64,000 nucleotides of DNA, taken from contig JAWKSP010000001.1 in the NCBI GenBank assembly GCA_041389025.1, forward strand, positions 64,002 to 128,001. Reading direction: 5' to 3'. This document shows positions 3,715 to 56,440 of this stretch, piece by piece. The stretch comes from Minisyncoccota bacterium (GTDB lineage: Bacteria > Patescibacteriota > Minisyncoccia > Phycocordibacterales > UBA918). The notes beneath the pieces were generated by a model. That model saw only the letters and a program-made list of their open reading frames with translations, made no database searches and was not told the DNA's origin. The position numbers and the translations under genes are program-made. The stretch's first letter is position 1, and every line of letters begins with the position of its first letter.

Positions 3715-4515
3715 CTATTGACGAGACTTCAATTTTAGTAGATTACGAAAGAGTAAGATGACCGTAAGCGGACCAATACCGCCAGGTACCGGCGTCAAAA
3801 GCAAAGCTTTTGACGCCACTGAAAGATTAGCATCACCCACCAAAAGACCACCGTCTTCAGAGGCTCCAGCGTCAAATACTACCACTCCCTCTTTTACCAT
3901 ATCTGCTGTTAGTAGATTTGGTCTTCCAACTCCTAATACAATAATATCCGCATTTTTAGTTTTTTCTTTTACATCCGTGCTGGTTTCATCTATGATTGTT
4001 ACCTCAGCTCCCATGGCTGTGGCGTATGCCACAACCGGCTTTCCCACCAACCTTCCTTGACCAAACACCACCACCTTCTTACCATTCCATTCTATTTTAT
4101 AAAATTTAGCCATCTCTTCAATCGCTCCCACCACCGGTGGCAAAATTTCAGTTTTTTCACCTTCGTAACCAAACGCATCAACATCTTTGTTTTTAGGAAT
4201 AGCACCCAAAACTTGATCAGTATCTATGTGTGCAGGCAACGGTAATTGCACAATTATGCCATCAGCTTTTTTAGCTTCAGTTTCAACTGTTTCAACTAAT
4301 TCACTAGTACCATTATTATTAGATAAAATAATATTTTTCATTTCTACCCCTAAAGTTTCCGCTTTAGCTTTTTTTAAAGCTAAAAATTTTTTAGTCTCGA
4401 AATTTGGTTCACAAGCAATTACAGTGATCTTAGGAACACTACTTTCATTTTTTATTAAATCAATAACCTCATCCGTTACTCGCAAAGCCAGAGATTTACC
4501 ATCAGCTAAATTCAT
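3715..4515 (-). CDS. folD: Bifunctional methylenetetrahydrofolate dehydrogenase/cyclohydrolase
   Basis: C-terminal PVPGGIGPLTVILLFRNLL and GKxVVVxGxGxLVGKP Rossmann motif, characteristic of FolD. Confidence 0.85.
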   Translation of the reverse strand: MNLADGKSLALRVTDEVIDLIKNESSVPKITVIACEPNFETKKFLALKKAKAETLGVEMKNIILSNNNGTSELVETVETEAKKADGIIVQLPLPAHIDTDQVLGAIPKNKDVDAFGYEGEKTEILPPVVGAIEEMAKFYKIEWNGKKVVVFGQGRLVGKPVVAYATAMGAEVTIIDETSTDVKEKTKNADIIVLGVGRPNLLTADMVKEGVVVFDAGASEDGGLLVGDANLSVASKALLLTPVPGGIGPLTVILLFRNLLKLKSRQ

Positions 4516-4524
4516 AATTTTAAC

Positions 4525-5622
4525 TTAATTTTTACTATCTAAATTATTTAAAACCTTCTCGGCTTCCGGTACACAATATTCATAATTACCGGCAGTAGTC
4601 GAAATCGCCTCAAGTGAGGAATACCGACAACGATAAACTACTGTTAATTTATCACCACTCATTAAAATTGGATAAGAGTAGACACGCCAAACACCTTGAC
4701 TGGTTGGTATTCTGCCTCTGGTTAAATGCCACAAACTCCAGAAAGACAACCTGACCATCCAAGATGGTACCATTAACACTTTTTTATCTACAATCTTAGC
4801 CATCTCATCTGCCAATACCGGCTTACCGTTCGGAGTTAAATTAAATACCTCGTATGACCAAGCGTTGGGTGAGAAAATCAAATGAGTCACCACTCCCAAA
4901 ACATCGTCTTCGTGTACAAATTGTCTTGCCCAACTAGTAGTAGCCGGCATATATGAAGTCATTAGTGATACTAATTTATTTAGAAAACCTCCTTTTAAAT
5001 CACCACGTAGGGCTGACTGCAATCCAAACCGCACAGTCATAAAACGGCCTTTTGGTCCGGTGATAGCCGCTGGACGCAAAACAGTAATTTGTGGATAATG
5101 CTTTTCTTCCAGCTGAGCTTTAGAGTAAGTATTGTACAATTTTTCCTCAACTACTTTCTTCTCTTTAGCATATAAATAATCGTCATCACGCAACCCTTCA
5201 GCTTCAGTAAAATAATGTTCTATGGAATTTTCCGGACGTGCACTATAAGAAGCCGCGGTTGAAAAATAAATTAGCTTTTTTACAAAACGATTAGCGAAAG
5301 CGAAGTTAAAAACCGCCTCAGACGCCTCTACATTTAAACGCCATTGTTCTTTTTCTCTTCCATATAGAGTTCGAATCTGCCAAGCTGTGTGCACTATGGT
5401 ATCCGGCATATAAGGAATGACTTTATTTTGCCAGCCGGCCTCAGCTAAATTAGCTTGTATATATAATACTTTCTCTAGTGACTTTGTGAGCTTGGTCTGC
5501 TCATCTTTATCAAGAGCGATAATTCTTTCCACATCATCACGTTTAGCCAACTGGTCACACAGCATCTCCCCCACATAACCGGCCGCGCCGGTTATCAAGA
5601 TTGTCCTCTTGTCATTATTCAT
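4525..5622 (-). CDS. NAD-dependent epimerase/dehydratase (extended SDR)
   Basis: TGAAGYVG glycine-rich NAD motif and YLYAKEKK (YxxxK) catalytic motif. Confidence 0.65.
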   Translation of the reverse strand: MNNDKRTILITGAAGYVGEMLCDQLAKRDDVERIIALDKDEQTKLTKSLEKVLYIQANLAEAGWQNKVIPYMPDTIVHTAWQIRTLYGREKEQWRLNVEASEAVFNFAFANRFVKKLIYFSTAASYSARPENSIEHYFTEAEGLRDDDYLYAKEKKVVEEKLYNTYSKAQLEEKHYPQITVLRPAAITGPKGRFMTVRFGLQSALRGDLKGGFLNKLVSLMTSYMPATTSWARQFVHEDDVLGVVTHLIFSPNAWSYEVFNLTPNGKPVLADEMAKIVDKKVLMVPSWMVRLSFWSLWHLTRGRIPTSQGVWRVYSYPILMSGDKLTVVYRCRYSSLEAISTTAGNYEYCVPEAEKVLNNLDSKN

Positions 5623-50117: not shown

Positions 50118-52163
50118 TTATTCTTGTACTTTCCCGTTTTCTTTTTCAAAACCTAATTCAGTGGACAATTCACTACTAATCGCGTCATTACGATCTTGCA
50201 GATTAGTGCCGGTAAAACGATCCTTGGCTAATAGATTTTGTCTTTCTACTAATGTTAATGTTCTACCAATATGTGTCACACTTGGCAAGAGTGAGACTTG
50301 AAACTTAAGCTGTTTGTCGGATTTGGCTTTTATGTCACCAATTTCCCAACGTAGCTGCTTGGATACCGGGTTAAACTCCACCTTACCTGGACCATCATAC
50401 TTATCATTCCAACTAATATATTGTGGAAGTGAAGTAGTCAAAACCGCATCACTAGCATCATTCACTCCTGCTCTAGCGCTGAGAGTAATAGTGTAATCAG
50501 TGGTTTTACCAGCTTGCGGTGGTATTGGACCTTGGTCGGAAAATATTCCTCCGCCATGACTAGCTTGTCCTAATGTTTCTATTTCAGAAGAATATTTTAT
50601 CTCAGCAATCGCCGTACCGATAAGTTCTTCACTGGCTCCCGCCTCATTTACTCTTCTGGCAAATACTTTTACCGACACATCAAAAGAAGCCGTGCTTTGT
50701 CCCGAGTCAGGATTGACACCAAAACTAAAACGTCGACTTTCATTTGGTCTAACCTCTTCCAAAGCTGGAGTTGAGGCAATTTCCCAATTGATAGTTTTGT
50801 AAGTTGAATCATAAAAACCAGAACTGACAGACAAAGCATTGTCTCTTATTACATTACCTTTTGGTGCGGCTTCTACCCGCATATCGTAGACTGTTTCGTT
50901 TAATGTATTTGTTACATCAATAGACACGCTTGTTCCTTCACCTTGTTTTAAAATAATTGAATTACCAGATTCACCGTTTACACTAACCACTACATTGGTA
51001 AACGGTTCTTCAATCTCATAGTTTATTTTAGTCTGAGTTAAAATTGAACTGATAATAAATTGATTATCTGACCTTGGATTTCCAGCAATAAACTGTATTT
51101 CTGATTCTTCGTTGGTAAAACCAGTTATTAAACCTCTTATTTTAAGTTGATAACTTTTCTCTGGTAAAACTTCTTCCAACAACCAACCATTTTGACCAGA
51201 AGAAGGAGCTGGTTCTGAACTAATAAACGAAAAGGTATTTGGGTAGTTGGTAGTAACTAAAACATTACGCAGTGGAGTTTGTGAATTTGAAGATAAATCT
51301 ACTGTTATATCCACCTCCTGACCGGAAGAAACTTTATTAACTGAATCAACTCTAAGCACCAACGGTGAAGAATTTATCCTTACCAAGATTGGCTCAATTT
51401 CTTTAAAGAAAGTACCATTGGAATTTTTAACCCGATACTCGACCGAAGCCTTTATTTCTTTATCTTGATTTTCCTCACCAAATAAAATAGCTTTAACAGG
51501 AACATTTATTGCCTCACTTGGACCAATATCATCTAATGATATTCTTTCTTCATACAAGTCTCTTCCCGACTCATCCCCTGCTTTACTACCGGACGGATAG
51601 TTAATAATTAAAGTAACCGATTCTATTGGTACGCTATTTTGGTTGGTAATGCTAAATTGTAGAGGTAAAATATCACCAGCAGCAACAGCAAAGGGTGCGT
51701 CTAATGAAATATTTATATTACCACCAGAAATTTGATTGGCTCCAAGGTAAATGTAAGCACTGGAAACAATAGCAGCAATAACAAAAACCGTTATACTAAA
51801 AGTAAGAACAATACTTCTAAAGGACCAACCTTTTTTGGTTTTAGTTTCTTCTTTATTATTTCTTACCACCGAATCAATCACTAAATCATTTTTAGGTGTT
51901 GTGTTTTCTTCTCTATCTTCTATAGAAGAAAAGTTGGACTGGAAATTATTATTTTTCGTATTTGTGTCTAGATTTGAGTTTGTATCTGGATTTTCTTTTA
52001 TTGTTGTAGTAACCACGGGTTTTGCTACATCCCCCCAACCTCTTGCTACATCAATTTTTTGATCGGTTAAAGAGTGACGCTTTATATCAGAGACAGTTTG
52101 ACCTCTGTCGTAAAGACGTTTTCTTAAGTCATCAATATTATCTTGATCTCTTATATCAGACAT
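50118..52163 (-). CDS. Large single-pass membrane protein with ~540-aa extracytoplasmic domain, function unknown
   Basis: TM helix around residues 118-140; the remainder is Ser/Thr/Asn-rich and predicted beta-rich. Confidence 0.4.
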   Translation of the reverse strand: MSDIRDQDNIDDLRKRLYDRGQTVSDIKRHSLTDQKIDVARGWGDVAKPVVTTTIKENPDTNSNLDTNTKNNNFQSNFSSIEDREENTTPKNDLVIDSVVRNNKEETKTKKGWSFRSIVLTFSITVFVIAAIVSSAYIYLGANQISGGNINISLDAPFAVAAGDILPLQFSITNQNSVPIESVTLIINYPSGSKAGDESGRDLYEERISLDDIGPSEAINVPVKAILFGEENQDKEIKASVEYRVKNSNGTFFKEIEPILVRINSSPLVLRVDSVNKVSSGQEVDITVDLSSNSQTPLRNVLVTTNYPNTFSFISSEPAPSSGQNGWLLEEVLPEKSYQLKIRGLITGFTNEESEIQFIAGNPRSDNQFIISSILTQTKINYEIEEPFTNVVVSVNGESGNSIILKQGEGTSVSIDVTNTLNETVYDMRVEAAPKGNVIRDNALSVSSGFYDSTYKTINWEIASTPALEEVRPNESRRFSFGVNPDSGQSTASFDVSVKVFARRVNEAGASEELIGTAIAEIKYSSEIETLGQASHGGGIFSDQGPIPPQAGKTTDYTITLSARAGVNDASDAVLTTSLPQYISWNDKYDGPGKVEFNPVSKQLRWEIGDIKAKSDKQLKFQVSLLPSVTHIGRTLTLVERQNLLAKDRFTGTNLQDRNDAISSELSTELGFEKENGKVQE

Positions 52164-52206: not shown

Positions 52207-52785
52207 CTAGAGGTGACTATTCTCAACTGCTTTTTTAATTAAATATTCCAACTGAGCTAAAGATAATTTTTCTTTATACAAAGACAAATTGTTAAAATCA
52301 CTTTTATCTAAACTAATTGAAAAACTCTTGCTATCAACATAACCAAGCATAGCTAAAATTTTTAGTTCGATTATTAATTCTACATATTGTCGATCTTCAC
52401 ACTCCCGACTTATTTTTTCAATAGACTCAATAAAGAAATCAAATAACTGCGGAGAAGACTCTTCACCATGAATAAATCGTCGTAAAATTTTTACCAACCG
52501 TACCACACTAGCTCGCGCTAAGCGGTCACTAGCCAACATAAAATAATTTACTTCCGGCTCAACGCTACCAATCCGCCAACCCTGCTTGCCTTTTACCAAA
52601 GAAACTTTGATGAGAGAAAATTCCTGCAGAGCTGGTCTTTGCTTAGACCTTTCCTCCCGCACGCTACGCGCAGTCGCAAACAACATACCCGCTTCTCTGG
52701 TAAAAAGCTGAAATGATTTATCTGAAGTGTTGTGGTCATACGCCCCACACACCAAAGCCTTGGTAGTGTACGTCTGATGTGACAT
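52207..52785 (-). CDS. DNA repair protein RecO-like (short form)
   Basis: N-terminal OB-fold pattern TKALVCGAYDHNTSDKSFQLFTREAGMLFATARSVR...; abuts ileS. Confidence 0.45.
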   Translation of the reverse strand: MSHQTYTTKALVCGAYDHNTSDKSFQLFTREAGMLFATARSVREERSKQRPALQEFSLIKVSLVKGKQGWRIGSVEPEVNYFMLASDRLARASVVRLVKILRRFIHGEESSPQLFDFFIESIEKISRECEDRQYVELIIELKILAMLGYVDSKSFSISLDKSDFNNLSLYKEKLSLAQLEYLIKKAVENSHL

Positions 52786-55700
52786 TTAGATTTTGTTTAT
52801 CGCAATCTTTAGTTGATTTCCGCCAATTTCTAGTACTTTTCCGTCAGTAACAGCTTCAAACTTTATTTCGCTGGCACCAACAGTCTTTTTGATAGTTTCA
52901 GACATGGTCTTTATCATGTCTTCAGTCTCTGTTTTTGCTTGAACTATAAGTACAATATCGTCCTGTGGTTTAAGTCCAGCTTCTTTTCTCGTGTCTTGAA
53001 CAGCTCGGATAAGCGCGCGCGCTTCCCCTTCCATTTTCAGTTCTGGGGTAATTTCCCAATCAAAATCAAATTTTGATTCCTCTTCCTCAACCACTTTCTT
53101 TAGTGAAACCTTCTTCACATTAAGCTCATCCGCTAAGATTGATGACACTTCTGTCCAACCACTTGACTCTACTATTTCATCTTCAATCAAAAATTCTGCT
53201 AGAGGTTGGCGGACATTTACTTTATTTTGTGTTCTTAGTTTTAGACCGATATTGGCGTAATCTCTGACTTTAATCATATTAACCAAAAGTTCACTGTTTA
53301 CCTTACCTTCCTCTGGCCACTTAGCCAAGTGCACACTTTCCGCTTCAATTTCTTCCTTAGTCTTCTGATACAAATATTCAGCGTAGAAAGGCATGGCCGG
53401 TGCCATGACCTTTGCTAGTTCACGAAGAACATAGCGCAAGGTACCAAGCGCCAACTTCTTATCTTCCACATTCTCTCCTTTCAAGCGGTCGCGTGAGCGG
53501 CGTAGATACCACACCGACAAGTCATCAATAAAATCAGTGATTGGTCGCACAGCCTTATCGAGCTCATAGGCTTTGTAGCCGGCGGTTGATTCGGTGATAA
53601 GTTGATTGAGGCGCGCCACGATCCACTTATCTAAAACATTATCTGAATCGTGGCGCGCCTCACCACCATCCGCAAACATTTCATACATCGCCAGCACATT
53701 GTGAAGTCGTCCGATGTTCTTCCGTTGTATTTCAAGCACGTCTTTTTCAGAAAAACTCAAATCTTCACCATGCACCACCGGCGAAGACAAAAGATAGTAG
53801 CGCATCGAGTCTGCCCCCAAACGCCCCACCAGCTCCATCGGGTCAGGATAGTTCTGCAGCGACTTACTCATTTTCTTTCCGTCTTCCGCCAAGACCAATC
53901 CATTTACAATCACGTTCTCATACGGCGACTTACCAAAGAGCGCTACTCCTAAGACGAGCATGGAATAAAACCACCCACGAGTCTGGTCCAGACCCTCGGC
54001 AATAAACTGCGCTGGGTAATGTTTGGTTTCAAAATCATCCTTATTTTCAAACGGATAATGAAACTGACCATACGGCACCGATCCACTCTCAAACCAACAG
54101 TCAAAGACGTCTGGCACTCGCTTCAATTCCTCCCCATCTTCATACAGCATAAAATCGTCGATATATGGGCGGTGATAGTCAAGCTCATAATCGTCATTAT
54201 GTGGAAGTGGAATAAACTTCATTTCAGATACCCTTCCCTTGTTTGGATATTGTTTTTCCCAACTAGCCACCACCTCATCTTGACTGAGACCAGTAGCTAC
54301 CGCATTCAATAAAGCTAAAGGATCGCCGTGAGATACAATCAAAATATTTTTTCCTTTATAAGTAGATTCAAGTTCATACAAGAAATCACCCATTCGTTTT
54401 TTTATATCAGTCCATGTTTCACCATTCTTGGGTGCGTTTTCAAACCGAGACAAACCGCGTGGAAAATCTGAAAAAAACTCCTTTAAAGAACATCCTTCAT
54501 ACTCACCATGATTTGTTTCTTGAATACGATTATCAACAATAATATTATCCGTATTAATACCAATTTCCTTAGCCACCAATTCTGCGGTTTGTTTGGTTCG
54601 TAACACCGGTGAAGTAAATATAAGATCAATTTTTCCTTTAAGAGATTCACCAGCTTGTTTTGATTCCTCTTCTCCTTTCTTAGTCAGCGGATAAGCGTCT
54701 ACCTTATCTGTAACAACTTCCAGTACATTTTTTTCACTTTCTCCGTGACGCATCACAAAGTATTTGTTACCACTTTTCGGCACATACTCATGTATCTCAG
54801 CCATGCTACCGAACACCTTATACTCACCAGTCTTTTCATTTTTCCAGATCGGTAGCGGCGCCCCCCAATAACGCTGCCTAGACACCGCCCAGTCACGCGC
54901 TCCCTCCAGCCACTTACCAAAGCGATTTTGTCCGACATAGTCTGGCACCCAATTCACTTTATTGTTGGCGGCCACCAGCTCATCCTTCATATCAGTCACT
55001 TTCACAAACCACGACGTGGTCGCGTAATTCAACAGCGGTGTGCTGTCACGCCAACAATGCGGATAACTATGAGTAATATTTTCTTTCTTAAAAATCTTTC
55101 CGGCCGCTTGCAAGTGACGCAAAACTTCAATATCCGCATCCAAGTGCGACACGCGTGCCTCATCGTCATCCTTTGGTTTCACTAGTTGCCCAGCAAAGTC
55201 TGTCACAAAATCCATAAACCGCCCGCCATAATCGACATGATGCGCAATTGGGATATTATTTTCCTTGGCTACGTTCATATCGTCCTCACCATAAGCCGGC
55301 GCTAAGTGCACCACACCAGTACCCTCCTCACCAATTTCTACAAAATCCGCGTGGTAGATCTTCCAGGCGTTTTCACGATCCTCTAGTTCTTCAGTCTTAA
55401 AGTAGTCAAACGGTGGCTGGTATGACAGACCTAGCAAATCTGACCCTTTCATTTCTTCCACTATTTTGTATCCATCTACAACAGTTTCTAACTGCACAAG
55501 ACGTTCTTTTGCCAGAATAACAAATTCACTTTTCTGATTTTCTAAAGTACTACTACCGTCGTTATGAACTTCAACATCTCCCTTTGTAACTTTCACCTTC
55601 ACATAATCCAACTCCTGATTAACCGCTATCGCCATATTACCCGGCAGTGTCCACGGGGTCGTCGTCCAAATCAAAATACTGGTATCAGTCACTTCTCCTT

Positions 55701-56397
55701 GATCATCCAAAAGCGGCATCCTGACTGTCACCGCGATATCCTTCACGTCTTTATAACCTTGATTCACCTCAAAGTTAGACAGAGTTGTCCCACATCGCGG
55801 ACACAAATGCATGCTCTTAAACCCTTCGTATACCAAGCCCTTTTCATGAAGTTGCTTAAACACCCACCACACGCTCTCGGTGTAGTTTGAGTCCATGGTC
55901 TTGTAATCATTTTCCATGTCCACAAAACGACCGAGCCGCGGAATGATCTGTCGCCAATCATCCGCATACTCCAAGACCGCCTCCCGAGCGGCTTCATTAA
56001 AATTCTTAATACCGTAATCTTCGATATCTTTTTTGTTGGCTAGACCGAGCTTCTTCTCAATCAGGTTTTCGAGTGGCAAACCATGACAATCCCAACCCCA
56101 CTGCCGCCTTACGCGGTAGCCATTCATCGTCCAAAAACGCGGAATTGCGTCTTTGATCGTACCAGCCAAAATATGTCCATAGTGCGGCAAACCAGTCGCA
56201 AACGGCGGTCCATCATAAAAAATATAATCTCCTTTCGGATCTTCTCCTGCCGGCTTTTCGATGCTCTTATTAAAAATTTCGTTTTCTTCCCAGAAAGTCT
56301 GAATTTCCTCTTCCCGTAAGGCCACCTCAGACTTCTCTACTTCTTTTACCACCTCAACCGAGTCGTTCTCACGACCATGTACTTTTTTATCTTTCAT
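52786..56397 (-). CDS. ileS: Isoleucine--tRNA ligase (type 2, eukaryote-like) with an in-frame ~185-aa histidine-phosphatase (PGAM-like) domain inserted in the catalytic core
   Basis: PHYGH (HIGH), WTTTPWTLPGN (editing CP1), SRQRYWGAPLP, DVFDCWFESG and KMSKS are all present and collinear. The ORF-track start at 56403 is TTG; the ATG is at 56397. Confidence 0.9.
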   Translation of the reverse strand: MKDKKVHGRENDSVEVVKEVEKSEVALREEEIQTFWEENEIFNKSIEKPAGEDPKGDYIFYDGPPFATGLPHYGHILAGTIKDAIPRFWTMNGYRVRRQWGWDCHGLPLENLIEKKLGLANKKDIEDYGIKNFNEAAREAVLEYADDWRQIIPRLGRFVDMENDYKTMDSNYTESVWWVFKQLHEKGLVYEGFKSMHLCPRCGTTLSNFEVNQGYKDVKDIAVTVRMPLLDDQGEVTDTSILIWTTTPWTLPGNMAIAVNQELDYVKVKVTKGDVEVHNDGSSTLENQKSEFVILAKERLVQLETVVDGYKIVEEMKGSDLLGLSYQPPFDYFKTEELEDRENAWKIYHADFVEIGEEGTGVVHLAPAYGEDDMNVAKENNIPIAHHVDYGGRFMDFVTDFAGQLVKPKDDDEARVSHLDADIEVLRHLQAAGKIFKKENITHSYPHCWRDSTPLLNYATTSWFVKVTDMKDELVAANNKVNWVPDYVGQNRFGKWLEGARDWAVSRQRYWGAPLPIWKNEKTGEYKVFGSMAEIHEYVPKSGNKYFVMRHGESEKNVLEVVTDKVDAYPLTKKGEEESKQAGESLKGKIDLIFTSPVLRTKQTAELVAKEIGINTDNIIVDNRIQETNHGEYEGCSLKEFFSDFPRGLSRFENAPKNGETWTDIKKRMGDFLYELESTYKGKNILIVSHGDPLALLNAVATGLSQDEVVASWEKQYPNKGRVSEMKFIPLPHNDDYELDYHRPYIDDFMLYEDGEELKRVPDVFDCWFESGSVPYGQFHYPFENKDDFETKHYPAQFIAEGLDQTRGWFYSMLVLGVALFGKSPYENVIVNGLVLAEDGKKMSKSLQNYPDPMELVGRLGADSMRYYLLSSPVVHGEDLSFSEKDVLEIQRKNIGRLHNVLAMYEMFADGGEARHDSDNVLDKWIVARLNQLITESTAGYKAYELDKAVRPITDFIDDLSVWYLRRSRDRLKGENVEDKKLALGTLRYVLRELAKVMAPAMPFYAEYLYQKTKEEIEAESVHLAKWPEEGKVNSELLVNMIKVRDYANIGLKLRTQNKVNVRQPLAEFLIEDEIVESSGWTEVSSILADELNVKKVSLKKVVEEEESKFDFDWEITPELKMEGEARALIRAVQDTRKEAGLKPQDDIVLIVQAKTETEDMIKTMSETIKKTVGASEIKFEAVTDGKVLEIGGNQLKIAINKI
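54214..54768 (-). other. Histidine phosphatase / phosphoglycerate-mutase-like domain embedded in IleRS (residues ~546-730)
   Basis: YFVMRHGESEKN (RHG catalytic His), RTKQTAELV, ETNHGEYEG and IVSHGDPL (second His). Lies between the IleRS SRQRYWGAPLPIW and DVFDCWFESG motifs. Confidence 0.7.
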
Positions 56398-56440
56398 ATT
56401 CAAATTTAGTTTTTATGTATATCAGACATATTAATAAACA

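Follow-up and report, generated by a model that had tools for sequence, protein, structure and literature searches.

A predicted histidine phosphatase nested in the CP3 loop of isoleucyl-tRNA synthetase in Patescibacteria

The subject of this analysis is the ileS gene within a stretch of 64,000 nucleotides (the window) of contig JAWKSP010000001.1 from a Minisyncoccota bacterium, in which an earlier note had flagged positions 54214-54768 as a PGAM-like histidine phosphatase domain inserted in frame into the catalytic core of an isoleucyl-tRNA synthetase (IleRS). We found that this gene (52786..56403, on the minus strand, as are all window features given below) almost certainly encodes a single polypeptide predicted to carry two enzymes, namely a complete type-2 IleRS and, in a loop on the surface of its CP3 subdomain, a branch-1 histidine phosphatase of ~200 aa. 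The open reading frame (ORF) is complete, has a TTG start and extends over 1205 aa in one frame, and all the IleRS hallmarks and phosphatase motifs that had been reported as collinear were located in it. A conserved, apparently active phosphomonoesterase in the core of an IleRS is an architecture that seems not to have been described.

Host synthetase, insertion site and phosphatase domain

The window protein retains the HIGH and KMSKS signatures, the CP1 editing motifs and the anticodon-binding domain of an IleRS. The HIGH signature reads PHYGH (residues 73-77, 56173..56187) and the KMSKS signature is found at residues 844-848 (53860..53874), while SRQRYWGAPLP and DVFDCWFESG occupy residues 508-518 and 765-774, respectively. 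Structure alignment and motif searches placed the CP1 editing domain at approximately residues 216-450 (55054..55758); the isolated editing-domain structures 1WK8 and 1UE0 aligned to residues 216-449, and the motif WTTTPWTLPGN lies inside CP1 at residues 246-256 (55636-55668). Conservation was assessed in an alignment of 69 full-length sequences, consisting of the window protein and 68 intact relatives, and this motif was present in 62 of them. Pfam further identified the anticodon-binding domain PF08264 (Anticodon_1, residues 925-1069, 53197..53631) and a C-terminal DUF5915 (PF19302, residues 1102-1204, 52792..53100), which is a hallmark of type-2 IleRS. The NCBIfam ileS equivalog TIGR00392 scored 877.3 bits (cutoff 621.4), its match being divided in two by the insert. 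The top structure matches of the protein were the human and yeast cytosolic IleRSs and P. megaterium IleRS2 (E-values of 4.5e-213, 6e-207 and 9e-198), whereas the type-1 enzyme of S. aureus reached only 1.4e-88, and the Foldseek ranking of the host part favored type-2 IleRS as well. By these matches the host protein is a type-2, eukaryote/archaeal-like IleRS, a class of enzymes that resist mupirocin.

The HIGH signature itself varies among the 69 insert-bearing IleRSs (loci L003-L082). It is PHYGH-like in about half of them, takes the form G-x-H-H (PGIHH, PALHH, PGVHH) in 22 and reads PH(S/A)GS, with the last His absent, in four, and the PHYGH-like and G-x-H-H IleRSs form separate clades. An altered HIGH motif of the G-x-H-H type has been tied to mupirocin hyper-resistance in IleRS2 (PMC10485003).

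CP3 is a small insertion module in the second half of the Rossmann fold, flanked by the two strands that bear SRQRYWGxPxP and DxWFESG. It joins CP2 to this second half, varies among IleRSs and binds Zn in T. thermophilus (PMC7191050). The window protein aligned to IleRS structures over residues 28-540 and then again from residue 742 on. In the alignments to the human and yeast structures, residues 540 and 742 of the window protein corresponded to chain residues 491 and 498, so that residues 541-741, approximately 195-200 aa, stand in for a loop of ~6 residues; the extra segment that had been estimated at ~185 aa is thus real, although somewhat larger by structure alignment. Residue 540 was aligned with residue 498 of C. 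albicans IleRS (6LDK), in which the CP3 subdomain comprises residues 473-534 (PMC7191050), hence the phosphatase is situated in the CP3 loop, which confirms the proposed insertion into the catalytic core and narrows it to this subdomain.

In the alignment, the N-terminal part of CP3 covers residues 515-540 (APLPIWKNEKTGEYKVFGSMAEIHEY, 54784..54861) and ends in VFGSMAEIHEY, the inserted segment (54181..54783) consists of a linker, the phosphatase domain and a second linker F-I-P-L-P-H-N-D-D-Y-E-L, and the C-terminal part of CP3 resumes with DYHRPYID (residues 742-764, 54112..54180), leading back to the Rossmann fold at DVFDCWFESG. The junctions accordingly fall between EIHEY and VPKSGNKY and between PLPHNDDYEL and DYHRP. 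Across the 69 sequences the insert measures 199-212 aa. The CxxC...CxC knuckle around the insert was kept in 17 of the 69, and its cysteines were absent from 47, among them the window protein, in which the Zn-knuckle cysteines of the N-terminal part are lost.

The inserted segment contains a His_Phos_1 domain (PF00300, residues 549-710, 54274..54759), detected at E=7.1e-33 with 114.3 bits against a gathering threshold of 21.7 and nested between two tRNA-synt_1 (PF00133) stretches. The flagged positions translate to residues 546-730. The comparison with PF00300 that had been suggested as a check thus came out in favor of the proposed domain. The phosphatase motifs are RHGESEKN (residues 552-559), RTKQTA (602-607), HGEYEG (632-637) and IVSHGD (689-694). 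Within them, the pair R552-H553 of the RHG motif, with H553 as the predicted phospho-acceptor (54745..54750), the second phosphate-pocket arginine R602 (54598..54600) and the second catalytic histidine H692 of the SHG motif (54328..54330) were conserved in 100% of the 69 full-length proteins, the predicted general acid E629 (54517..54519) in 98.6% and N559 in 97%. The insert had a mean identity of 0.41 to the window protein; CP1 stood at 0.47, the anticodon domain at 0.49 and the C-terminal domain at 0.32, a pattern indicating that the insert is under purifying selection and constrained like the editing and anticodon domains.

Modeling supports an independently folding insert. The AlphaFold2 model of the insert alone reached a pLDDT of 92 and a pTM of 0.89, and a model of residues 440-1205 reached a pLDDT of 89 and a pTM of 0.76, with values of 92-98 for the insert portion. 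Foldseek matched the insert model with a probability of 1.00 and TM-scores of 0.69-0.78 to Rv2419c (4QIH), PspA (4IJ5), PhoE (1H2E, 1EBB), CobC and HFP; with the larger model, the host part matched IleRS2 and yeast IleRS and the insert separately matched PhoE/PspA at target-normalized TM-scores of 0.74-0.76. The insert is therefore predicted to fold as an autonomous domain, the point on which the earlier note had proposed a structure prediction.

The same relatives were recovered when a profile of the insert was compared with known structures, the best matches being PspA 4IJ5 (2e-27) and PhoE/YhfR 1EBB and 1H2E (5e-27), together with CobC (6NRU) and S. pombe PGM (1FZT). However, the insert fell below the NCBIfam cutoffs of the dPGM families (NF038349 dPGM_arch, 103.8 of 225 bits; PRK01295, 48.7 of 316; GpmB, 48.5 of 261) as well as of the PspA and CobC families (NF045917, 66.1 of 350 bits; TIGR03162, 73.3 of 162.9; PRK15004, 59.6 of 250), the archaeal-type dPGM being its best NCBIfam phosphatase match. 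By profile comparison it is thus a branch-1 histidine phosphatase of no characterized subfamily that groups with the short PhoE/PspA/CobC-type phosphatases and not with the phosphoglycerate mutases. Strictly speaking, the domain is no dPGM.

In P0008, P0011, P0025, P0082, P0119 and P0239 the nested domain takes a variant form whose cap region is shorter by ~35 residues (profile positions ~90-124) and in which RHA often replaces RHG. The substrate pocket of this variant may be altered or reduced.

Distribution, additional copies and genomic neighborhood

To gauge the spread of the nested form, one genome per GTDB species was searched for the insert plus junction, and the insert was found at the identical site in at least 316 species-representative Patescibacteria genomes, answering the question whether other patescibacterial IleRSs share it. 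All named matches among those listed came from Paceibacteria/Parcubacteria lineages, and the lineages among the matches listed were Kaiser-, Nomura-, Taylor-, Zambryski-, Adler- and Vogelbacteria, Paceibacterota and Minisyncoccia. Uninterrupted ORFs of 1100-1290 aa with the same junctions were present at 68 of the 80 retrieved loci. An exhaustive search with a hidden Markov model (HMM) of the insert yielded 587 cluster representatives at E<=1e-30, most of which were IleRSs with the CP3 insert, and a protein search with the insert and its flanks returned many fragments of Patescibacteria IleRSs for which PF00133 and PF00300 had been precomputed, under no other source names than "class I tRNA ligase family protein" or "isoleucyl-tRNA synthetase". 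On this distribution, the nested architecture is an old one that spans the lineage of Paceibacteria-type Patescibacteria.

An artefact, an intein or a recent horizontal insertion could be suspected from two observations, namely a dip in GC content to 0.34-0.38 in the insert compared to ~0.48 in the flanking IleRS core, and the many database homologs that are short fragments. Misassembly or chance is excluded since the same insert occupies the same site in all these genomes, 68 of which independently hold an unbroken ORF with identical junctions. The fragments also led us to consider a naturally split IleRS, as the top matches were all <=616 aa and several of them started exactly with MRHGE; this was rejected because the genome loci hold intact ORFs and the fragments trace back to gaps in scaffolds and to frameshifts, such as a gap of Ns in L002, which reads through to 1103 aa, and frameshifted pieces in L083. 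As had been proposed, intein signatures are missing: the junctions carry neither an N-terminal Cys/Ser/Thr nor a C-terminal HN, and no intein, Hint or homing-endonuclease family of Pfam was detected in the window protein at E<=0.01. The GC dip was likewise rejected as a sign of recent transfer, because it equals the genome background and parallels the low GC of the weakly conserved C-terminal domain, and the insert is clade-wide. Taken together, we consider the probability of an artefact or a mobile element to be negligible.

The CP3 loop is not the only site at which this phosphatase has entered a synthetase. Architectures verified with Pfam revealed four insertion sites (A-D) in IleRS and two in valyl-tRNA synthetase (ValRS). 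One of the additional IleRS sites follows DxHRPxID within CP3, another follows HYPFxN, and the third follows KMSKS, where the anticodon-binding domain begins. The ValRS sites are located before ISRQIWWG and after it, the latter being the CP3-equivalent site. Some IleRSs carry two or three phosphatase copies (P0182, with 1419 aa, P0190, P0204, P0167, P0243 and P0254), the full-length multi-copy proteins measuring 1419-1468 aa, and the ValRSs P0121 and P0255, from a Gracilibacteria-like lineage, carry two to four. Up to four tandem, catalytically intact copies are present in P0121, while P0255 is a complete ValRS of 1538 aa with two copies and a further insert of ~300 aa. Insertions in ValRS are rare, with four more clusters (P0259, P0277, P0282 and P0288) in a lineage near Gracilibacteria; among the newly retrieved top representatives with a host part, 119 hosts were IleRS, two were ValRS and one was TsaC.

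One IleRS, P0172 (1066 aa), contains three foreign domains within a single synthetase, an IS200-like Y1_Tnp in CP1, His_Phos_1 in CP3 and a GNAT domain after HFPFEN.

Members of the phosphatase subfamily also occur as free proteins of ~190-210 aa. All five free copies on informative contigs (P0238, P0257, P0235, P0252 and P0251) were encoded directly upstream of an ileS without the insert, tblastn having identified the downstream gene as ileS. The gene order at these loci is argS-pho-ileS-(small ORF)-recO-DUF11/CLIPPER, and the gap between phosphatase gene and ileS is 8 bp in L084 and 1 bp in both L086 and L089 (phosphatase genes at 4001-4588, 4001-4570 and 2120-2707, respectively); further free genes are present in L085, L090, L092 and L093. 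This argS-pho-ileS-recO block is the same synteny block as that of the nested form in the window and in L001/L002. In the window, recO (192 aa, 52207..52785) directly adjoins the ileS stop codon, and the next gene (50118-52163) encodes a DUF11/CLIPPER-repeat protein of 681 aa; the order ileS-recO-DUF11 is shared with the distant relatives L001, L083 and L086. Neither the window nor the flanking DNA of 80 nested-type loci contained a free paralog of the phosphatase. The subfamily thus stays physically linked to ileS, either nested in it or as a separate gene abutting its start.

By sequence, the free form is no more distant from the nested form than nested copies are from one another. The mean identity between free copies and nested CP3 copies was 0.35, with nearest neighbors at 0.44-0.48, and nested copies shared 0.34 with each other, while the copies at the second site (B) clustered on their own. 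The insert-less IleRS of L086 sits among nested-type IleRSs, with 61% identity to L013 and 60% to L015, which were its nearest neighbors in 199 of 200 resamplings, which implies either more than one interconversion of nested and adjacent states or an ancestor that had both. The C-terminal linker F-x-P-L-P-H-N-x-x-Y-E-L-D is common to the nested forms, and neither the free proteins nor the CP3 loop of L086, KLSSVKVT, has it.

Elsewhere in the window, the 3' part of an rRNA operon was found at 14442-15500 (3' end of the 23S gene, two tRNAs and 5S). Between 23S and 5S, beside tRNA-Asn(GTT), lies a tRNA-like gene (14630-14705) to which ARAGORN assigned an anticodon loop of 8 nt ("gttt") and which scored 51.5 bits with the Rfam tRNA model; it could be a frameshift-suppressor-like or a degenerate copy of the Asn tRNA.

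Possible roles of the nested phosphatase

Branch-1 histidine phosphatases form a phospho-histidine intermediate that is subsequently hydrolyzed. From its conserved residues, the insert is predicted to be an active phosphomonoesterase with H553 as nucleophile and E629 as general acid. R552, R602, N559 and H692 would hold the phosphate during the attack of H553 on its phosphorus, E629 would protonate the leaving group, and the phospho-histidine would then be hydrolyzed. Alternatively, the fold could be catalytically dead and recruited as an expansion of CP3 for binding tRNA or protein only, and indeed CP3 topology varies among IleRSs (PMC7191050) and a minority of the relatives are cap-deleted or have RHA instead of RHG. 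Yet the R-H-G/A-N-R-E/D-H set was kept in nearly all of 209 copies in every context, and the catalytic residues were ~99-100% conserved in 69 proteins that have diverged to ~40% identity, which makes a dead domain very improbable.

The reading that we favor, and to which we give an even chance, is that the insert is an accessory phosphatase dedicated to IleRS and functionally coupled to it, clearing a phosphorylated species that disturbs the adenylation/aminoacylation cycle. The synthetase would charge tRNA-Ile in the usual way, and candidate targets of the phosphatase would be a by-product or nucleotide (pyrophosphate (PPi) or of the AMP type), a tRNA whose 3' end is phosphorylated, or an inhibitor that carries a phosphate. 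Since the phosphatase occurs at several insertion points, in different copy numbers and as a co-translated separate gene, its role seems to depend on being near the synthetase or co-stoichiometric with it, and a fixed geometry appears unnecessary. The genomic context thereby narrows, without singling one out, the roles that the earlier note had suggested, which were action on a phosphorylated tRNA end, action on a nucleotide and moonlighting.

A competing explanation, which we find possible but somewhat doubtful, is that the insert is an ordinary housekeeping enzyme for small metabolites (e.g., a phosphatase for phosphoserine, phosphoglycerate or nucleotides, or else a short mutase), unrelated to aminoacylation and captured by its downstream neighbor ileS. 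It would have been kept since both activities are needed and CP3 is permissive, the fusion only securing co-expression. A number of observations speak for this explanation, and several of them also weigh against a dedicated phosphatase. The nearest characterized relatives of the insert use small metabolites, the closest solved ones being the metabolite phosphatases PspA 4IJ5, PhoE 1H2E/1EBB, CobC 6NRU, GpgP 4QIH and HFP 9MMH, and its best NCBIfam phosphatase match is a dPGM. The insertion positions vary, which argues against geometric coupling. The argS-ileS-recO-DUF11 block is syntenic across these lineages whatever the function, so adjacency alone is a weak sign of coupling. Moreover, the insert is mildly acidic (mean net charge of -3.4, pI of ~6.2) and hence has no obvious RNA-binding surface, although CP1 is mildly acidic too, so that the charge says little here. 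Finally, promiscuous fusion is common, as illustrated by the Y1_Tnp and GNAT domains on one IleRS and by TsaC/YrdC, which is found fused to TruB, 2H/CPDase, MPG (methylpurine glycosylase), Nudix, GNAT and His_Phos_1 domains, the last in P0245 and in four such clusters in all; with so many unrelated partners of TsaC, fusion appears to be cheap in streamlined genomes. What the housekeeping explanation accounts for less readily is the fidelity of the subfamily to its hosts. It is found almost exclusively with ileS or valS, free copies abut ileS in five of five testable cases, and a change from nested to adjacent still left the gene at ileS. Independent insertions have taken place in ValRS, the closest paralog of IleRS, two to four catalytically intact copies can be present in one synthetase, and the curated cutoffs for dPGM, PspA, CobC and GpmB were all missed widely.

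Among the proteins P0245 and P0379-P0495, the most frequent fusion partner of Patescibacteria TsaC/YrdC was MGMT (PF01035). The TsaC-phosphatase fusion had also been considered as part of an adenylate/PPi theme, but this was set aside as weak support, given that the partners of TsaC are many and unrelated and that the fusion gene is not near ileS.

As a sub-case of functional coupling, the insert might be a module for tRNA-end repair or against toxins, removing a 3'-(pyro)phosphate or a 2'/3'-phosphate left on the CCA end by ribotoxins or toxSAS-type enzymes so that IleRS can charge the tRNA. Phosphorylated, blocked tRNA 3' ends are a real physiological problem, and toxSAS toxins are known to pyrophosphorylate the CCA 3' ends of tRNAs (bioRxiv 10.1101/2021.04.30.441581; PMC11559606). 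In class Ia enzymes the tRNA 3' end shuttles between synthetic and editing site, which would be compatible with several tethering points. Every host is a tRNA-related enzyme, and in TsaC fusions His_Phos_1 alternates with 2H/CPDase domains of RNA-end healing. On the other hand, we know of no branch-1 histidine phosphatase that acts on RNA ends, TsaC belongs to the t6A pathway and does not handle the tRNA 3' end, and the insert is acidic. Furthermore, nothing explains why the need would be limited to IleRS and, rarely, ValRS, and no toxSAS gene or repair partner was seen adjoining the ileS locus of the window. We therefore regard tRNA-end repair as quite unlikely.

In a broader form, the insert could be a third dedicated active site of the synthetase, a repair or immunity module that lifts a phosphoryl block on isoleucylation. 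Its targets would be tRNA ends that are 3'-(pyro)phosphorylated in a toxSAS-like manner or cleaved by ribotoxins, or a phosphorylated inhibitor mimicking the adenylate, and it would have a parallel in the GNAT domains found on IleRS and TsaC. Such a role appears unlikely to us; if true, it would add a new class of accessory activity to the aminoacyl-tRNA synthetases (aaRSs) beside editing, and the repeated uptake of the phosphatase by IleRS, ValRS and TsaC would point to a selective pressure that bears specifically on the adenylate-forming tRNA enzymes of episymbiotic Patescibacteria.

Returning to the dedicated accessory phosphatase, functional coupling of the two enzymes would represent a new accessory chemistry for tRNA charging, by product clearance, tRNA-end repair or inhibitor detoxification, and would offer a view on the translation pressures acting in ultra-small episymbiotic bacteria. 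If the phosphatase is instead a hitch-hiker, the gene would be a clean natural case of domain nesting and of interconversion between nested and adjacent states in an essential gene. In addition, metabolic reconstructions of candidate phyla radiation (CPR) genomes could mistake the embedded domain for a gene of its own, coding for a phosphoglycerate mutase or a phosphatase.

Comparison with known systems

The aaRSs belong to the most thoroughly studied enzymes, and their known accretions comprise editing, RNA-binding and signaling domains, located mostly at the termini or in CP1. A full-text literature search, with many subscription papers outside its coverage, returned no published description of a phosphatase in IleRS or any other aaRS. 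The statement in the earlier note that no such aaRS was known therefore agrees with the papers found, although hundreds of database entries already carry both Pfam domains as precomputed annotation.

The window protein shares the HIGH and KMSKS signatures, CP1, CP2/CP3, the anticodon domain and DUF5915 with the type-2 IleRSs of P. megaterium (IleRS2, 8C8V), S. cerevisiae and C. albicans (8WND, 6LDK) and with the T. thermophilus enzyme (1ILE). In contrast to the eukaryotic IleRSs, it has ~200 aa and a second, predicted active site where their CP3 loop has ~6 residues, and compared to the Thermus-type CP3 it has lost the Zn-knuckle cysteines that 17 of the 69 relatives keep. The guest domain in turn shares its fold, its size of ~190-200 aa and the RHG...R...E...H set with PhoE/YhfR (1H2E, 1EBB), PspA (4IJ5), the alpha-ribazole phosphatase CobC (6NRU) and the glucosyl-3-phosphoglycerate phosphatase Rv2419c (4QIH), but it is only 21-26% identical to these enzymes and is nested in, or genetically tied to, a class Ia aaRS.

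Inteins are likewise large in-frame insertions between highly conserved host motifs of an essential enzyme, whereas the window insert has no Hint or splicing domain, no junction nucleophile and no endonuclease, and is an enzyme retained across hundreds of species. A precedent for an additional small catalytic domain on IleRS is provided by ileS_w_GNAT (NF040702), in which the added enzyme differs; the window protein scored 336.8 bits against the cutoff of 1999 for this family and had no acetyltransferase match in Pfam. A precedent outside IleRS is the bifunctional RNase H/CobC-type acid phosphatase of the Rv2228c type (NF005567), in which His_Phos_1 is joined to a nucleic-acid enzyme. The insert matched its phosphatase half with 76 bits, under the cutoff of 326, but that protein is an end-to-end fusion with another partner enzyme. 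Both IleRS and nucleic-acid enzymes have thus been joined to additional enzymes before, but none of these is an embedded phosphatase. In conclusion, both the host and the guest are ordinary, and what sets the IleRS of these Patescibacteria apart from the known systems is the nesting in CP3, its conservation over hundreds of species and the fidelity of the phosphatase to class Ia synthetases.

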